This document shows positions 2,669 through 46,724 of a stretch of DNA of 64,000 nucleotides, piece by piece. The position numbers and the translations under genes were made by a program. The notes below the pieces were generated by a model. That model made no database searches, was not told the origin of the DNA, and saw only the letters and a program-made list of their open reading frames with translations. The stretch lies in contig CAZVVW010000003.1 in assembly GCA_964630685.1 (NCBI GenBank), positions 32,110-96,109 on the forward strand. Reading direction: 5' to 3'. How positions within the stretch are numbered: position 1 is the first letter of the stretch; each line of letters opens with the position of its first letter. Source of the stretch: an uncultured Methanosarcinales archaeon (GTDB lineage Archaea > Nanobdellota > Nanobdellia > Woesearchaeales > BS150m-G63).

Positions 2669-2698
2669 GATTATTAAAACGGACCAGGAGGGATTTGA
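2669..2698 (-). repeat. 30-bp direct duplicate of the tRNA-Arg 3' end plus downstream flank
   Basis: gattattaaaacggaccaggagggatttga is identical at 2669-2698 and 2825-2854. Confidence 0.95.
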
Positions 2699-2824
2699 GA
2701 CCTACAGTTTCGGCTGAATAGGCTACGAAAAGCGACACACTAAGACTTAGGTCTTAGAGGTCCCTTAATACCCTCTTCGATTCATTTCTTTAATTGAAAA
2801 TTTATATTATTATTTAATATAATC
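2699..2824. mobile_element. Short non-coding hairpin element between duplicated tRNA-Arg 3' ends (putative non-autonomous tRNA-targeted element)
   Basis: Carries modules shared with the tRNA-Ser locus (cctacagtttcggctg..taggc; ttaatacYctcttYgattYat) and the tRNA-Thr locus (gcgacacactaag-N8-cttagaggtccc). Confidence 0.55.
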
Positions 2825-2835
2825 GATTATTAAAA

Positions 2836-2910
2836 CGGACCAGGAGGGATTTGAACCCTCGATCCCTTCCTTAGGAGGGAAGTGCCTTATCCAGGCTAGG
2901 CTACTGGTCC
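2836..2910 (-). tRNA. tRNA-Arg(CCT)
   Basis: Reverse complement folds as a cloverleaf: acceptor GGACCAG/CTGGTCC, anticodon arm CTTCC-CTCCTAA-GGAAG, T-loop GGTTCAAATCC. Confidence 0.96.
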
Positions 2911-2965
2911 AATAAACACCAATTATAAGGTAAGCTTTTTATAACTTTTTCTTTTTCTAAGGTAT

Positions 2966-3955
2966 ATGTATAAGATAAAGCAAATTCCGGAAGATTTTGT
3001 TGTTAAAGAAGAATTAAAACTAAAATTGGGTAAGGGGGATTATTACTATTTCTCACTTAAAAAAATTAATTGGACCACACATCAATCGATTGAAAAAATA
3101 GCGAAAATTCTGAATCTGTCTGTGAAGAATATTGGTTGTGCAGGAAATAAAGACAAAAAAGCAGTAACTACTCAAACAATATCTATTAAATCTTCAAAAC
3201 CTCTTGAAAAGTTTAAATTAACTCGAGATAATTTAAAGTTGAGTTATCTTGGAAAAGGGAGTTCTCCAATTAGTTTGGGTGATTTGGATAAAAATAATTT
3301 TGAGATAATTGTGAGAGATATTACTGAAAAGCCTAAAAATGTAGCGGTTGTTCCAAATTATTTTGATGAACAAAGATTTAGTAAAAATAATGCAGAAATA
3401 GGTGGGTTGATTGTTAAAAAAGAATTTAAGGGTGCAGGAGAATTATTGAAACAAAATAAACATCATTCGTTTGAAGAACACCTAAATAAAAATCAGACTG
3501 ATTATCTTGGAGCTATTAGAAAGATTTCCAAAAAAATTCTTATGTTATATGTTCATTCTTATCAAAGTTTATTGTTTAATGAAATGTTAAATGATTATGT
3601 GAAAAAAAATTATAAACACAAAACAATTAAAACTAATTTTGGTGAATTATCTTTTCCCTTGGGGAGTATTAAACAATTCAAATTGCCATTAATTGGTTTT
3701 ATGACTAAAGAAAATAATACTGTAAAAGAAGTTCTGAAAAAAGAAAAGCTGTGCCTTAGGGATTTTGTGATAAGACAAATTCCTAATCTAAGTCAAGAAG
3801 GTCAAATAAGACTTAGTTTTATTTATTTAGCTGATTTAAAAATTTCTAATTTACAACAAGATGAATTTAATAAGCTAAAAAGTAAGGTAAAATTAAAATT
3901 TAGCCTCCCAAAAGGAAGCTATGCGACAATGGTTGTAAAGAATTTATTCCTCTAA
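2966..3955 (+). CDS. truD: tRNA pseudouridine(13) synthase TruD
   Basis: PEDFVVKE, GNKDKKAVTTQ, PNYFDEQRF and F.LPKGSYAT motifs. Confidence 0.95.
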   Translation: MYKIKQIPEDFVVKEELKLKLGKGDYYYFSLKKINWTTHQSIEKIAKILNLSVKNIGCAGNKDKKAVTTQTISIKSSKPLEKFKLTRDNLKLSYLGKGSSPISLGDLDKNNFEIIVRDITEKPKNVAVVPNYFDEQRFSKNNAEIGGLIVKKEFKGAGELLKQNKHHSFEEHLNKNQTDYLGAIRKISKKILMLYVHSYQSLLFNEMLNDYVKKNYKHKTIKTNFGELSFPLGSIKQFKLPLIGFMTKENNTVKEVLKKEKLCLRDFVIRQIPNLSQEGQIRLSFIYLADLKISNLQQDEFNKLKSKVKLKFSLPKGSYATMVVKNLFL

Positions 3956-4604: not shown

Positions 4605-4715
4605 AAGCCTCGGGAGCCAACTTTTAAAAAAGTTGGATCAAAAGGATGTGCGACACACTAAGGCTAAAGCCTTAGAGGTCCCACCAACTCTTTCGCTTCG
4701 CTCGACTTATTATAA
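4605..4715. mobile_element. Short hairpin element bounded by a 12-bp duplicate of the tRNA-Thr 3' end
   Basis: aagcctcgggag occurs at 4605-4616 and 4716-4727. Inside are the palindrome ccaactttt-aa-aaaagttgg (4617-4636) and the module gcgacacactaag-N8-cttagaggtccc (4650-4682), shared with the Arg locus. Confidence 0.55.
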
Positions 4716-4716
4716 A

Positions 4717-4811
4717 AGCCTCGGGAGGGATTTGCACCCACGACCTTGGGATATCTTTATTTTCTTGTGAAAATTTACAAGTCCCACGCTCTGCTAACTG
4801 AGCTACCGAGG
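4717..4811 (-). tRNA. tRNA-Thr(TGT) with 22-nt intron at 37/38 (intron 4753-4774)
   Basis: Acceptor GCCTCGG/CCGAGGC; anticodon arm TGGGA-CTTGTA|A-TCCCA after intron removal; relaxed BHB (CTTG/AAAG central helix, ATTTT/GAAAT outer helix); atypical T-loop TGCAAAT. Confidence 0.9.
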
Positions 4812-4865
4812 CATGAAGTCAAAAAGAAATAAGTGCTTTATAAATATTTCTAAAATAAGATTCAA

Positions 4866-5424: not shown

Positions 5425-6045
5425 TTACCATACATCTTCAAAGGCATTTCCTTTTCCAGTCATATCTAAATATTCTTTGATTTGCCCTTCAAATTTTTCT
5501 ATAATATAATGAAGTCTGTCAGACCACATATTATCCATTGGTTTGAAAAATATAAATCTATCTAAGAATTTTTTTAGTTGAAGTCCGAATGGATTATCTT
5601 GGAATCTTTTTTGATAATCTGTTTCTACATCTCCCCAAAATTCAAGTATGAATTTACCTTTATACATTGTTTTCTTTTCCCCTTTTTCAACTATTTCTAT
5701 TTTTCTGACATCAAAAGTATGCATTTCTAACTTAATATTATATTTATAATACTCAGTTACTTTTCTCCAACCAGTCCATTTAAACTCTTCTTCCACTCCA
5801 AAAATTGTGGGTACTTTGTATTTATAATCTTCTTCTTCAAAAAAATAATGTCTATTTCTAAACCACTTTACTATAAAATGATATAGCCCATCCCAATCAA
5901 AAACTCCATCATAAATAATCCTAGAATAGGGGTGATTACCCATTAATTTAGAATCCCCTTCTTTTTCGTATTTTGGTGGACGTTTTACAGGAGTATATTT
6001 CTTTGCATCCTGATTTTCTTTTTTATTTCCCCCTTTTTTAGTCAT
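5425..6045 (-). CDS. Uncharacterised protein, paralog 2 of a tandem triplet
   Basis: 206 aa; YDGVFDWDGLYHFIVKWF, WRKVTEYYKY, GKFILEFWGDVETDY. Confidence 0.85.
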   Translation of the reverse strand: MTKKGGNKKENQDAKKYTPVKRPPKYEKEGDSKLMGNHPYSRIIYDGVFDWDGLYHFIVKWFRNRHYFFEEEDYKYKVPTIFGVEEEFKWTGWRKVTEYYKYNIKLEMHTFDVRKIEIVEKGEKKTMYKGKFILEFWGDVETDYQKRFQDNPFGLQLKKFLDRFIFFKPMDNMWSDRLHYIIEKFEGQIKEYLDMTGKGNAFEDVW

Positions 6046-30211: not shown

Positions 30212-30490
30212 ATGAAAATAACAATTGATACTAAAACAGATAGCCAAGAAGAAATAAGAAAAGCAATAAAATTACTTGAGAGTTTATTGTCTTCTTCTGT
30301 ACATTTGGAATCTAACACTGTTGAAGAAAATCCTGGCATGTTTAGTATGTTTAATGACTCTTCTGATTCTTCAGAACCAATCCAAGAAGAAAGTGTTCCT
30401 CCTGTAACTGCTTATGGGGAAATTACACCAAAAAAAGAGGAATCTCCTAAATCAGAAACATTTAACATTAAAGAATTACTTGATGATTAA
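30212..30490 (+). CDS. Uncharacterised acidic protein
   Basis: MKITIDT..DS.EEIRKAI.LL N-terminus followed by a low-complexity tail. Confidence 0.75.
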   Translation: MKITIDTKTDSQEEIRKAIKLLESLLSSSVHLESNTVEENPGMFSMFNDSSDSSEPIQEESVPPVTAYGEITPKKEESPKSETFNIKELLDD

Positions 30491-30559
30491 TTCTTTAAGA
30501 AATTAAAGAATTACTTGATGATTAATTCTTTAAGAAATTAAAGAATTACTTGATGATTA
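30467..30559. repeat. 35-bp tandem repeat (2 full copies + 23 bp), containing an 11-bp perfect inverted repeat
   Basis: Unit attaaagaattacttgatgattaattctttaagaa starts at 30467, 30502 and 30537; stem ttaaagaatta/taattctttaa with a 9-nt loop. Confidence 0.93.
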
Positions 30560-30622
30560 GATTTTTATGATTTTGCTTTTTCGTCCAACATTGATTACTT
30601 TTGTTTTTCCAATTTTTTCTTT
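30557..30622 (-). pseudogene. Relic 3' end of a homologous metallophosphoesterase gene
   Basis: Translates KEKIGKTKVINVGRKSKIIKI*, versus EEKIGKTRVINVGRKGKIINL* at 30662-30727. Confidence 0.85.
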
Positions 30623-32276: not shown

Positions 32277-33347
32277 TTAGAATTCAGTCAATTTCTTTAC
32301 CCTAGAATAATCAACTAAAGTAGTGCTTCCTTCTGAACCACCAGTTATTTTTTTAATTGAGATGAATTTATTATCTGCTAATTTTTTGATGCTTCTCTGA
32401 AAAGTTTTATATGTTTTTTCTCCACCTTCAGATTTATATTTTTCATATAATTCCCCTATTTTTGCTTGGGGATTTTTTTTAATGATATTTAACACAAATT
32501 GGGTTTCATCATCTAAAGAAGAACTGCTTTTTATACTAAAACTATCTAGTTTTTCTATCGCTTTATTTACATCATCAATCTCTATCTTTTTGTTACCCCT
32601 ATTCTCAGCAATGTTTCCTGCTTCTTTCATTAGATAGAGTCCTGATCTTATGTCTTTTAGCTCAACAGTTTTATCTACAACTGCTTTGAATGCAGATTCA
32701 TCCCAAACTCCACTTACAAATGCGTAACCTTTTCTATACTTTAGAATATCTTCTGTTTCTTCTCTGCCATAAGGTTTGAATTCCATCATTTCAGCCATTA
32801 ATCTAGATTTTATTCTTTGATCTAAATTCTCGGCCCACTTGCTTTCGTTAGTAATTAAGATTATACTTTTTCTATAAATATCTTCAAGAATAGAATAAAG
32901 AAAACCTAATTCTTCGGCTTTATCGATTTCGTCAAATACAAAAACAACCGAAGCTTTGTTCAATGTTTTTTTGGCGATGTCTAATAATTCATCTGTTTTT
33001 TTATTATGAGTTAATCTATAATCTAATTTTTCACACAATTCGATTGCAACTTTATGGCTGGTGTTTTTTTGCCAGCAGTTAATATAGATTGGAATTATCT
33101 CGTCTGTTTCTTCTTCCACTATTCTCAGCATGTGGTTACACACAACTGTTTTCCCTATACCGCTTTGCCCAAATAAGACCATATTTGTGCCATTTCTTTT
33201 TTGATCTAAAGGTTTAATACAAGTAGCAATTTTTTTTTGTTCGTTTGTTCTCCCCCTAATTAATTTAGGCATATAATCATAATCTAATGCGACAGGATCT
33301 TTGAATAAACTTTCTCCAGACCCTAGCATATTTTCAAAAACTCCCAT
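32277..33347 (-). CDS. cdc6: Cdc6/Orc1 family replication initiator
   Basis: ALDYDYMP...R, GQSGIGKT, YINC, FVFDEID, LDQRIKSR, F.PY, C-terminal winged helix. Confidence 0.9.
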   Translation of the reverse strand: MGVFENMLGSGESLFKDPVALDYDYMPKLIRGRTNEQKKIATCIKPLDQKRNGTNMVLFGQSGIGKTVVCNHMLRIVEEETDEIIPIYINCWQKNTSHKVAIELCEKLDYRLTHNKKTDELLDIAKKTLNKASVVFVFDEIDKAEELGFLYSILEDIYRKSIILITNESKWAENLDQRIKSRLMAEMMEFKPYGREETEDILKYRKGYAFVSGVWDESAFKAVVDKTVELKDIRSGLYLMKEAGNIAENRGNKKIEIDDVNKAIEKLDSFSIKSSSSLDDETQFVLNIIKKNPQAKIGELYEKYKSEGGEKTYKTFQRSIKKLADNKFISIKKITGGSEGSTTLVDYSRVKKLTEF

Positions 33348-36983: not shown

Positions 36984-37041
36984 TTTAATTCACCATGTAT
37001 AAAAAAGATTTAGTGCTTTATAATATTTTTTAAAATTATAG

Positions 37042-37378
37042 AGTTAATAAGACGTTATAAGGGACGCCGAGGGTGGGATTTGGAACCTACAGTTTCGGCT
37101 GTAGGCTTCGAAAGGCAATATAAATTAACAAAGTTAATTTAATTACTTAATACTCTCTTTGATTTATAATTTTATTAAAAGATTGAAGTTAATAAGAAAT
37201 TATAAGGGACGCCGAGGGTGGGATTTGGAACCTACAGTTTCGGCTGTAGGCTTCGAAAGGCAATATAAATTAACAAAGTTAATTTAATTACTTAATACTC
37301 TCTTTGATTTATAATTTTATTAAAAGATTGAAGTTAATAAGAAATTATAAGGGACGCCGAGGGTGGGATTTGAACCCA
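37042..37378. repeat. 145-bp tandem repeat of the tRNA-Ser 3' end plus hairpin element (2 full units + tRNA)
   Basis: gggacgccgagggtgggatttg starts at 37061, 37206 and 37351. Units 37061-37205 and 37206-37350 are identical and contain the hairpin cctacag-tttcgg-ctgtagg. Confidence 0.95.
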
Positions 37379-37436
37379 CGATCCCAAAGGGACAGGATTA
37401 GCAATCCTGCGCAATACCAGGCTATGCGACCTCGGC
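37355..37436 (-). tRNA. tRNA-Ser(GCT)
   Basis: Acceptor GCCGAGG/CCTCGGC, anticodon arm CAGGA-TTGCTAA-TCCTG, long variable arm TCCC-TTT-GGGA. Confidence 0.96.
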
Positions 37437-37530
37437 ATACTGTGAAGAAAGTGGCTCTTTTGTTTAAATATCTTTGCCTTTTTAAGATGTTTCCAAAACT
37501 TTTAAATATCACCCACAATAATTTAAATAA

Positions 37531-38361: not shown

Positions 38362-38477
38362 AGCGGAGTAGGGCAGCCAGGAGTGCCCGTCGGGCCCATA
38401 AATAAAAACATGGATATATTTTCTATGTAACTTCTTAGGAAACCCGGAGGTCAGAGGTTCAAATCCTCTCTCCGCTA
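38362..38477 (+). tRNA. Initiator tRNA-Met(CAT) with 41-nt intron (38401-38441)
   Basis: A1:T72 pair, GGG/CCC anticodon stem and D-stem GGGC/GCCC as in archaeal initiators; relaxed BHB (CCCA/TAGG); C at position 33. Confidence 0.9.
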
Positions 38478-38520
38478 TTTGTCATTATTCTTAGAAAAAT
38501 AGTTTCATAATTTATGTATA

Positions 38521-38568
38521 TCTTTTACTTATGGGCAATTGGGCTGTTAATACTGCCCTACTCCGCGG
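38521..38568 (-). pseudogene. Degenerate inverted copy of the initiator tRNA 5' half
   Basis: Minus strand reads GCGGAGTAGGGCAG-tattaaca-GCCC-aatt-GCCCATAA-gtaaaa versus tRNA GCGGAGTAGGGCAG-ccaggagt-GCCC-gtcgg-GCCCATAA-ataaaa. Confidence 0.7.
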
Positions 38569-46590: not shown

Positions 46591-46724
46591 GAGGGGGTAC
46601 CGAAGTCTGGTCAAACGAGCTGGACTCAAGTTATTGAGTTGTGAGGCAATAGCCGATGATTGTTGCCCGCTATGAGGAATCCAGTCCCTTAGTGGGTTCG
46701 AGGGTTCGAATCCCTCCCCCCTCA
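46591..46724 (+). tRNA. tRNA-Leu(CAA) with 48-nt intron (46631-46678)
   Basis: Acceptor GAGGGGG/CCCCCTC; CTGGA-CTCAAG|A-TCCAG; perfect BHB central helix CTCA/TGAG; long variable arm. Confidence 0.93.

Follow-up and report, generated by a model that had tools for sequence, protein, structure and literature searches.

How did the 3' end of a tRNA gene come to stand twice in an archaeal genome, on either side of a short piece of DNA that holds no open reading frame (ORF)? The gene is tRNA-Arg(CCT), in a stretch of 64,000 nucleotides (nt) from a member of the Woesearchaeales (contig CAZVVW010000003.1, positions 32,110 to 96,109), which we analysed as a whole and refer to as the window. A preliminary description, made from the sequence of the window, took the locus to be the founder of a three-locus family, either of tiny non-autonomous elements that home to tRNA genes or of structured RNAs cotranscribed with them. 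The answer that we favour, at a probability a little short of even, is that the insert and its relatives are copies of a small (~85-125 bp), non-coding, non-autonomous mobile DNA element of Woesearchaeota.

The duplication at tRNA-Arg is exact, as first described. Repeat X (GATTATTAAAACGGACCAGGAGGGATTTGA), which joins 19 nt of the tRNA 3' end, counted from the T-loop, to 11 nt of trailer, occurs at 2669-2698 and 2825-2854 without a mismatch in its 30 nt and encloses 126 bp (insert E(Arg); Table 1). Since the repeat includes the trailer and lacks CCA, the duplication was made at the DNA level. The distal copy ends 3 nt ahead of the ATG (2665) of a gene for an LPG-synthase-like membrane protein (ORF 1679-2665, Pfam). 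The core of the insert (2699-2785), spanning modules A to C, has a GC content of 44.8% against 30.6% for the window, which places it at about the 99th percentile among 90-nt windows, and the spacer behind it (2786-2824) has 7.7%. An extra unit may be present at this locus in one other assembly (L006; L numbers are our labels for the sequences compared).

Two more tRNA genes of the window, tRNA-Thr(TGT) and tRNA-Ser(GCT), have the same arrangement, and upstream of every window insert stands an intact tRNA of normal score (ARAGORN, Rfam), although tRNA-Thr is missed by ARAGORN at its default settings. Each insert separates the 3' end of its tRNA from the start of a downstream gene of the same orientation, namely the LPG-synthase-like gene (Arg), adenylate kinase (Thr) and a 69-amino acid (aa) ORF (Ser), and none of them (99-126 bp) contains an ORF. 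The Thr insert carries a further motif, D (TTTCGCTTCGCTCGA). At tRNA-Ser, two tandem units of 145 bp are identical at 145/145 positions, and the leftmost repeat copy together with its AT-rich flank (37026-37087) is 87% identical to the next copy; because this homology reaches ~30 nt further left than the repeat itself, the target originally duplicated was ~60 nt long. Other assemblies have one Ser unit (L128, L129) or at least two (L131), and here as elsewhere in this study tandem copy numbers come from short-read assemblies, in which short reads do not fix the true count. The full Arg arrangement is found in at least 4 independent assemblies (JGI, ENA), and the Ser arrangement in several.

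The three inserts are built from common modules, and the sharing listed in the preliminary description proved to be far above chance by shuffling. Module A (CCTACAGTTTCGGCTG) is found in the Arg insert and in both Ser inserts (2701, 37086 and 37231; 0.16 occurrences expected by chance), as is module C (2765, 37147 and 37292; 0.07 expected), and module B is common to Arg and Thr (2732-2764 and 4650-4682; 0 expected); chance is therefore rejected as an explanation of the modules. The T-loop-like sequence noted earlier is also there: what comes after module A on the tRNA strand is GGTCTCAAAT at Arg and GGTTCCAAAT at Ser, compared with GGTTCAAAT in real T-loops. What has to be abandoned is the idea of the Arg copy as founder, since the Arg and Ser inserts are diverged paralogues (~70% identical, compared by eye) and the core motif predates the genus.

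That core motif (CCTACAKTTTCGGCTGTAG), in hairpin A, is nearly invariant and recurs in distant Woesearchaeota, where members were found with a degenerate A pattern in genomes whose TruD is only ~45% identical. A core string of 19-26 nt is identical between two loci of one groundwater metagenome-assembled genome (MAG) and L112, and the marine clade differs from it by 1-2 nt. On the plus strand hairpin A can be drawn as an 8-bp stem with a UUCG loop. Hairpin 2 is conserved in a different manner, its sequence drifting freely while its pairing is maintained by compensatory changes, both between paralogues and between tandem copies. Its lower stem exists as GAC..GTC, AAT..ATT and GAT..ATC, the module B stem reads CTAAGAC/GTCTTAG at Arg and CTAAGGC/GCCTTAG at Thr (an A-T to G-C change), another pair of variants is AAATTAAC/GTTAATTT versus AAATCAAC/GTTGATTT, and within a single tandem array ATGGGAT..ATCCCAT stands beside GTGGGAT..ATCCCAC. 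Every member of the A/D family whose orientation can be read has the same order: a copy of the gene end, hairpin A, a variable hairpin, the C/D motif, an AT-rich tail and the intact gene end. This rule of polarity holds for the A/D family; short motif matches in the inserts of L034 and L045/L055 conflict with it.

Do the inserts move? Relatives have preserved the sites in both states. Flanking genes assign the window to Woesearchaeota (DPANN), and the closest species representative, the Black Sea MAG BS150m-G63 (L009), is syntenic with the window at ~82% nucleotide identity. Its tRNA-Thr is orthologous (88% identity, same intron), has no module B and is followed by adenylate kinase 55 nt on, and the sequence behind the distal repeat in the window (TATTTGAATAAA) matches the sequence directly behind the tRNA in L009 (TACTTTCAAACA), so that L009 has the empty site. 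Its tRNA-Arg(CCT) (5801-5947) likewise has no insert. It ends 16 nt ahead of the LPG-synthase ATG, its 3' end being collinear with the distal copy of X and not with the tRNA of the window. It carries one intron in the D-loop and another at 37/38, and it differs from the window gene in the acceptor, D and anticodon stems, which, between conserved flanks, indicates that the tRNA allele was replaced. In the same MAG (L101), tRNA-Cys(GCA) has behind it an insert of 92 nt, which carries an A variant, and then an 18-nt copy of its own 3' end, and upstream of this tRNA, starting 113 nt off, lies a tandem array of at least three units of 171 bp (L101, L102). Over a stretch of 62 nt covering module A and hairpin 2 these units match the Ser insert at 89% identity, and they contain no tRNA fragment; L102 was also the one locus that a scan of metagenome contigs returned.

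At tRNA-Met(CAT) it is the window that has the empty site, a single copy of the tRNA 3' end with TTT. In a sister species, whose ZIP transporter is 89% identical, the same 20 nt (AAATCCTCTCTCCGCTATTT) flank family units behind tRNA-Met, which number one, at least two or at least three according to the sample (L136-L138; 115 bp each), and the downstream flank is orthologous. Every one of these units ends in ...GAGCTACTACCCAAAACGTAGGTTCC, an A variant with the T-loop-like GGTTCC seen also at tRNA-Ser in the window. The window thus has inserts at Arg, Thr and Ser and none at Met, whereas its relatives have none at Arg or Thr and have them at Met and Cys. Further afield, the close relatives L034 and L035 differ behind tRNA-Arg(CCT), where L034 has an insert and L035 has none.

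The tRNA-Met gene of the window (38362-38477) has a 39-nt intron and is labelled 'Pro' by ARAGORN -i. About 75 nt downstream of it, at 38553-38566, its first 14 nt recur in inverted form (CTGCCCTACTCCGC, which is GCGGAGTAGGGCAG reverse-complemented); on the minus strand this copy resembles a tRNA 5' half (acceptor, D-arm and a CCCATAA loop), and it is conserved in the sister species (L136, ~2085-2100). This copy could be a leader-trailer processing stem, or else a relic or a split 5' half.

The family is not confined to tRNA genes. In L105 the core stands directly beside 25 nt copied from the 3' end of a gene for a PfkB kinase (Pfam, 3e-41), and 65 nt of the same gene end are copied at the flank of another hairpin insert, which is unrelated; the PfkB 3' end thus occurs three times (25 nt, 65 nt and full length) within 2892-3240 of the reverse strand, each time with an in-frame stop (EAHL*, EAHL*, EAHP*). 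In L125 the core occupies a spacer between two protein-coding genes and has no repeat of at least 10 nt at its flanks, and in L112 it lies ~175 nt from tRNA-Ser, arranged as in the window, its repeat decayed. Hence the preliminary description is right that inserts stand behind tRNA genes between repeats of their 3' ends, and tRNA homing is too narrow a term for the family: at PfkB, in the L125 spacer and in the L102 array the core is found apart from any tRNA duplication, which goes part of the way towards the refutation that the description itself had named.

What kind of object, then, are these inserts? Insertion at gene ends, duplication of the target, gain and loss between sister genomes and tandem amplification are observed here together with conservation of the core, and the first four form the signature of a small non-autonomous mobile element. 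Insertion with target duplication is favoured because the segment that is duplicated is simply the sequence present at each site (five tRNAs and one kinase gene) and because its length varies from 11 to ~65 nt (11, 12, 13, 14, 15, 18, 20, 24, 25, 28, 30, ~60 and 65 nt across loci). The same core stands beside different duplicated targets (Arg, Ser, Met, Cys and the last 25 nt of PfkB), and a fixed att core therefore does not explain the pattern.

Such an element would have a polarity, with hairpin A (CCTACAKTTTCGGCTGTAG) at one end, followed by hairpin 2, a pyrimidine-rich C/D motif and an AT-rich tail. It would enter at a hairpin-prone gene end, usually between the T-arm and the 3' end of a tRNA gene and sometimes at the 3' end of a protein gene, and its insertion would bring a long, variable target duplication (11-65 bp). 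One duplicate would complete the gene, allowing an essential single-copy gene to survive, and the other would come to abut hairpin A on the far side. The direct repeats could then feed unequal recombination or slippage, giving rise to tandem arrays, to variation in copy number and presumably to loss. As to the enzymology, we infer that the duplication may be made during insertion, by joining into staggered breaks and fill-in, and that a protein supplied in trans may recognise hairpin A.

Several features weigh against this mobile-element interpretation. Repeats of 11 to ~65 nt span a wider range than any characterised transposase gives. The fixed polarity, in which hairpin A faces the fragment and the tail faces the intact gene, would be expected from an asymmetric attP and not from a simple staggered cut. 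The inserts have no terminal inverted repeats and no conserved right end, their ends being mutually unrelated, and no partner enzyme was identified in the Pfam scan of 48 window ORFs or in the neighbourhoods of the inserts. Copies within one genome have modules in common and are not identical over their full length, and besides the tandem units nothing points to a very recent burst; the L125 copy has no detectable flanking repeat; and a conserved, GC-rich, structured core would suit a selected RNA too.

Table 1. Features at the insert-bearing tRNA loci and at the empty tRNA-Met site (window coordinates).
Feature	Position	Strand	Details
tRNA-Arg(CCT), complete, intronless	2836-2911	minus	ARAGORN 2835-2911; Rfam tRNA 2836-2910, 66.4 bits
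Repeat X, proximal copy, 30 nt	2825-2854		trailer 2825-2835 and tRNA 3' end from T-loop 2836-2854
Repeat X, distal copy, 30 nt	2669-2698		exact identity with 2825-2854
Insert E(Arg), 126 bp	2699-2824		between the X copies
Module A hairpin, CCTACAG-TTTCGG-CTG(AA)TAGG	2701-2722		family-defining core
Module B, two-part hairpin GAC-ACA-CTAAGAC/GTCTTAG-AG-GTC	2732-2764		common to Thr locus
Module C, TTAATACCCTCTTCGATTCAT	2765-2785		common to Ser units
tRNA-Thr(TGT), 23-nt canonical intron	4717-4812	minus	Rfam; ARAGORN -i
Thr proximal repeat AAGCCTCGGGAG, 12 nt	4716-4727		tRNA-Thr 3' end and 1 nt
Thr distal repeat, 12 nt	4605-4616		31 nt ahead of adenylate kinase start codon (4573)
Insert E(Thr), 99 bp	4617-4715		hairpin 4617-4636, module B 4650-4682, motif D 4691-4705
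tRNA-Ser(GCT)	37352-37437	minus	ARAGORN, Rfam
Ser array	37055-37372		28-nt repeat TTATAAGGGACGCCGAGGGTGGGATTTG three times: 37055-82, 37200-27, 37345-72
Ser inserts, two identical, 117 bp	37083-37199, 37228-37344		carry modules A and C
Diverged extra copy of AT-rich flank at Ser	37026-37054
Empty site: tRNA-Met(CAT) 3' end and TTT, single copy in window	38461-38480	plus	gene 38362-38477

Could the inserts instead be miniature integrative elements, or scars of them, left by Campbell-type recombination with an integrase acting in trans from the genome, a virus or a plasmid? This is the most probable of the alternatives, though we consider it unlikely overall. Here the attP of the element would carry a copy of the gene end next to hairpin A and would recombine with the palindromic T-arm, so that the tRNA is rebuilt and its original 3' end becomes the distal repeat, and tandem units would follow from repeated integration or unequal crossing-over. 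The polarity just mentioned, constant with hairpin A facing the fragment, fits this model, as does the variable length of identity, which is typical of att sites, and repeats exist of both 3' and 5' tRNA ends, as in SSV- and pNOB8-type archaeal integrations, a situation covered by the model of Sugahara et al. 2012 (PMC3293823). Hairpin A is laid out like a recombinase core site, with inverted arms of 7-11 bp around a 6-bp spacer, and the junction of E and X resembles a hybrid T-arm, GTAGG-TTCCAAAT-CCCAC, of the form GTAGG-TTC(C)AAAT-CCCAC, the same extra C being found at the window Ser and sister-species Met junctions. Junctions also fall within palindromes: the T-arm, TCTGCGGCAGA (PfkB) and CCTCGGGAGG (Thr). 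On the other hand, the core is joined to at least five gene ends, which would require attP to be re-targeted at every move; only T-loop letters are common, and these only among the tRNA cases, so that there is no single att core; excised circles would measure merely 56-155 bp; and neither the L125 copy, which has no repeat, nor the L102 array, which has no gene fragment, is accounted for.

Searches for mobility genes and viral counterparts bear on the same model. The window has 58 ORFs of at least 110 aa, and Pfam searches of 48 of them found no integrase, transposase or Cas1, in agreement with the preliminary description, which had reported no integrase in the window, and no integrase or transposase adjoins any of the ~15 inserts in the window and its relatives. 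IMG/VR viral contigs gave chance matches or none with exact and degenerate A patterns and with the B pattern, and an origin from a virus or plasmid is rejected for want of a true match there; the one match of module B in GTDB (L001, an actinobacterium) lies within coding DNA and is likewise attributed to chance. The earlier proposal of a tiny non-autonomous element family therefore stands as regards small, non-coding, hairpin-rich and mobile inserts that carry no integrase, and its derivation from integrase att sites is not demonstrated.

The only insertion sequence (IS) found in the lineage is present in the sister species (L139 62-1002, and also L136 1-873), between tRNA-Ser and the ZIP gene. 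It measures 941 bp, encodes a 287-aa transposase with an rve (DDE) domain and is flanked by a 13-14-bp target duplication (TTTTAAGAGGTTT(C)), so that transposition with long duplications does occur in the lineage. It is absent from the window, which has the empty site near 37470-37490. A miniature inverted-repeat transposable element (MITE) derived from this IS was considered and rejected, the terminal (C)TGTAG being all that is common with an arm of hairpin A. In more distant relatives, ORFs with weak LAGLIDADG_3 matches (homing-endonuclease-like) lie immediately upstream of the ZIP gene (L142 182-1207, L143 2329-2841).

Scarcely less probable than the integrase model, and again improbable in our view, is a structured non-coding RNA that would be cotranscribed with the upstream tRNA or other gene and freed by tRNA 3' processing, hairpin A (possibly as a small pseudoknot) and hairpin 2 being its functional parts. 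The copied tRNA 3' end would then serve as a tRNA-like terminus, or would keep the processing site and the leader of the downstream gene. The GC-rich core (44.8% against 30.6%), its conservation across distant Woesearchaeota and the compensatory changes in hairpin 2 are what such an RNA would lead one to expect. Predicted folding beats shuffled sequences on both strands and is consistently better on the tRNA-sense strand, with z-scores in the four elements tested of -2.2, -4.3, -2.9 and -3.4 in tRNA sense and -1.3, -2.6, -2.6 and -2.3 on the other strand (E(Arg): -2.17 and -1.33). The distal repeats lie 3 nt and 31 nt ahead of downstream start codons, and at some loci (L034, L081) no T-run follows the proximal tRNA end, so that read-through is expected. 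For hairpin A itself, one compensatory change backs the UCGG/CCGA pairing of an H-type pseudoknot (downstream YCGA with the loop); this single pair is not significant against shuffles, nor is the covariation test of the A motif, which is nearly invariant.

Against a selected RNA stands that sister species disagree at four tRNA loci in whether the element is there, making it dispensable at any one site; with turnover this rapid, an essential role at any single locus is unlikely. The neighbouring genes have no common function. Motif D is in tRNA sense in inserts with 5' repeats and in the opposite sense in 3' inserts, so that the relation to the neighbouring transcript is not constant. Rfam 15 returns only tRNAs at gathering scores and nothing credible for the inserts up to E = 10, and inspection by eye revealed no C/D-box, H/ACA, K-turn or CRISPR-repeat features in the inserts and no convincing bulge-helix-bulge (BHB) motif around hairpin A. 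A cotranscribed, selected RNA is not incompatible with mobility.

Repeat-flanked inserts of this general kind are found more widely, as a scan of 35 ARAGORN-called tRNAs in 83 woesearchaeal loci (0.82 Mb) revealed. Eight distinct tRNA genes (nine entries, L101 and L102 being the same locus) have a copy of their 3' end of at least 12 nt within 600 nt downstream, the window tRNA-Thr being an additional case that the scan missed, and for three tRNAs 15 nt of the 5' end are repeated upstream of the gene. The repeats always enclose hairpin-rich inserts of 44-190 nt, except that one encloses a toxin-antitoxin cassette: behind tRNA-Val in L059 (482-1115), 613 nt on the opposite strand hold a MazE/AbrB antitoxin and a PIN toxin, and the copied 3' end is 16-20 nt long, depending on how a T-run is counted.

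The tRNA-Arg(CCT) gene next to TruD is disrupted in yet another way, by introns in the T-loop (59/60), of 17 to more than 150 nt, which are common in Woesearchaeota and were found in 14 genomes (L010, L013, L033, L034, L043, L044, L055, L060, L061, L064, L075, L083, L087 and L105), where ARAGORN misses the gene. These introns are modular and hairpin-rich, with a hairpin CAGCTTCTTGCTAAGCTGG, CACGCA, a variable hairpin and then GCTCGCTnnnGCTCGC, and the single intron of L013 holds two module sets. Repeat-flanked 3' inserts occur at the same gene in the window, L081, L058 and L034, of which L034 has both insert and intron, while L035 and L020 have neither. Might the inserts and the T-loop introns be two outcomes of one mobile modular hairpin element, which on a spliceable landing becomes a BHB intron and on a non-spliceable landing in the T-arm or at the 3' or 5' end survives only with a duplicated gene end? 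The varying states of the tRNA-Arg(CCT) locus are compatible with this, as is a 12-nt motif (CTCGCTTCGCTC) present in the same polarity in T-loop introns, in the window Thr insert, in the L101 Cys insert and in the 5' inserts of L076 and L031. The link through so short a motif is only suggestive, the A motif is never seen within an intron, and we regard a single element behind both as improbable, more so than either the integrase or the RNA. Non-canonical BHB introns of archaeal tRNA genes, for which 'transposition' has been proposed (Fujishima and co-workers; review PMC4090602), are a known counterpart. The T-loop introns of woesearchaeal tRNA-Arg(CCT) resemble the repeat-flanked inserts in being modular and hairpin-rich, with CTCGCTTCGCTC in common with some of them; the window inserts differ in lying outside the mature tRNA, in needing no splicing and in having a duplicated exon end.

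A decayed tandem duplicate of tRNA and spacer, whose downstream copy would have eroded to hairpins and a 3' end, is very improbable. It is true that the Arg insert, read on the tRNA strand, has collinear resemblances to its tRNA (GGGACC, compare acceptor GGACCAG; an 8/8 match of GTAGCCTA to tRNA positions 7-14; GGTCTCAAATCC against GGTTCAAATCC) and that the L081 unit folds like an acceptor/T minihelix. Yet the same A core at four tRNA ends and a protein gene cannot be a relic of each, module B is common to the Arg and Thr inserts, and the repeat extends into the trailer and is 100% identical, with no relatedness in the rest. Mis-joins in short-read assemblies are the least probable explanation of all, since, although contigs often break at the repeats (L007, L008, L130, L133), tandem copy number varies by assembly and there are N gaps within the sister-species arrays, the identical single-unit X-E-X structure recurs in independent assemblies (JGI, ENA and Logan) from several samples and, with different sequences, in different species and MAGs. 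Both the decayed duplicate and the artefact are effectively excluded.

Several more specific mechanisms were also considered and rejected. Insertion of the IS200/IS605 type (palindrome-associated transposable elements, PATE) is rejected for lack of a conserved target tetranucleotide in the left flank, and a retroviral-type primer-binding site because the repeat has a trailer and no CCA. Simple tandem duplication of a 3' end with its downstream DNA fails, since the order tRNA-E-X would need a second E. A second tRNA, a split-tRNA 3' half or a minihelix is not formed, because no segment that could serve, in nested order, as the 5' strand of an acceptor stem exists in the Arg, Ser and Cys inserts; pairing between the repeat and the beginning of the insert is seen only in L081 and Thr. 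Targeting of RNA by a guide-plus-scaffold RNA with the repeat as guide is unlikely, given that the repeat is antisense to the target RNA at 3' sites and, oriented by motif D, would be sense at 5'-repeat sites.

How does the element that we favour compare with known systems? Integrases of the archaeal SSV and pNOB8 types generate att direct repeats in tRNA genes, and both an integration model and a link to tRNA fragments and introns have been proposed (Sugahara et al. 2012, PMC3293823). As at att sites, a direct repeat of a tRNA terminus (3' or 5') surrounds foreign DNA, the tRNA is intact and the crossover lies in the T-arm or 3' end; unlike att elements, the insert has only 44-190 bp, carries no integrase gene or fragment, uses many gene ends including that of a protein gene and has no viral or plasmid counterpart that we could find. 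Also comparable are insertions with long, variable target duplications that overlap gene 3' ends and have no mobility genes (Furuta et al. 2010, PMC2853133). As in those, the target is single in the genome that lacks the insert and doubled where it flanks one (Met, window against L136-L138; Thr, L009 against window), the repeat varies in length up to tens of bp and often overlaps a gene 3' end, and mobility genes and inverted repeats are lacking; the toxin-antitoxin cassette of L059 is moreover analogous to their restriction-modification cassettes. Most of our repeats are shorter than the 30-bp cut-off of that study, whose authors viewed tRNA-derived repeats as possible site-specific events (Furuta et al. 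2010, PMC2853133). Their insertions are kilobase gene cassettes in bacteria, whereas ours is a conserved non-coding hairpin element of ~100 bp, of fixed polarity, in DPANN archaea.

MITEs, Rickettsia palindromic elements and REP/BIME sequences are short, non-coding, hairpin-forming repeats dispersed in compact genomes. Our element is like them in these respects, and in being non-autonomous and tolerated in very compact genomes, and unlike them in having no terminal inverted repeats, no short fixed duplication, a low copy number, modular similarity and a strong association with gene ends. Casposons have a Cas1 integrase and terminal inverted repeats and make a 14-15-bp duplication at the 3' ends of tRNA or other genes. 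Mycoplasma IS1630 is an IS with long target duplications (Furuta et al. 2010, PMC2853133). Both resemble our element in the use of tRNA or gene 3' ends, and many woesearchaeal repeats have 11-16 nt; the differences are that here there are no inverted terminal repeats and no Cas1 or transposase, and that repeat length is not fixed (up to 30, ~60 and 65 nt). Repeats of tRNA ends around integrated elements are thus already known, as are insertions with long target duplications. No description of an element such as ours was found in the full-text literature searched, and what appears to be new is the combination: a conserved, gene-less hairpin element of ~100 bp with fixed polarity, the use of tRNA ends (occasionally a protein gene) in DPANN archaea, tandem amplification, fast turnover and a possible kinship with T-loop introns.

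Two other features of the window deserve mention. An intergenic array (30467-30571) of three tandem units of 35 nt (ATTAAAGAATTACTTGATGATTAATTCTTTAAGAA), with an inverted repeat inside every unit, lies ~1.7 kb from an Orc1/Cdc6 gene (32277-33347) and may consist of replication-origin repeats. At 46591-46724 ARAGORN -i alone calls a tRNA Leu(CAG) with a 48-nt intron, which is absent from the Rfam list at gathering scores and is not flanked by repeats.

What would such an element mean for these organisms? Among cellular genomes those of DPANN archaea rank with the smallest and most compact, and they are notorious for tRNA genes disrupted by multiple introns and splits, the origin of which is an old question. 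The element gives this question an object that can be searched for by sequence, the A motif. It also raises the questions of which enzyme moves it in a genome of ~1 Mb, whether T-loop introns and tRNA fragments arise by the same process, and what protects essential single-copy genes during insertion. In practical terms, repeats of tRNA fragments and tandem units break short-read assemblies and may mislead the annotation of tRNA genes and integrative elements in DPANN MAGs. If inserts and T-loop introns do prove to be two outcomes of one element, the X-E-X structures would be snapshots of archaeal tRNA genes in the course of gaining or losing introns and of becoming fragmented.

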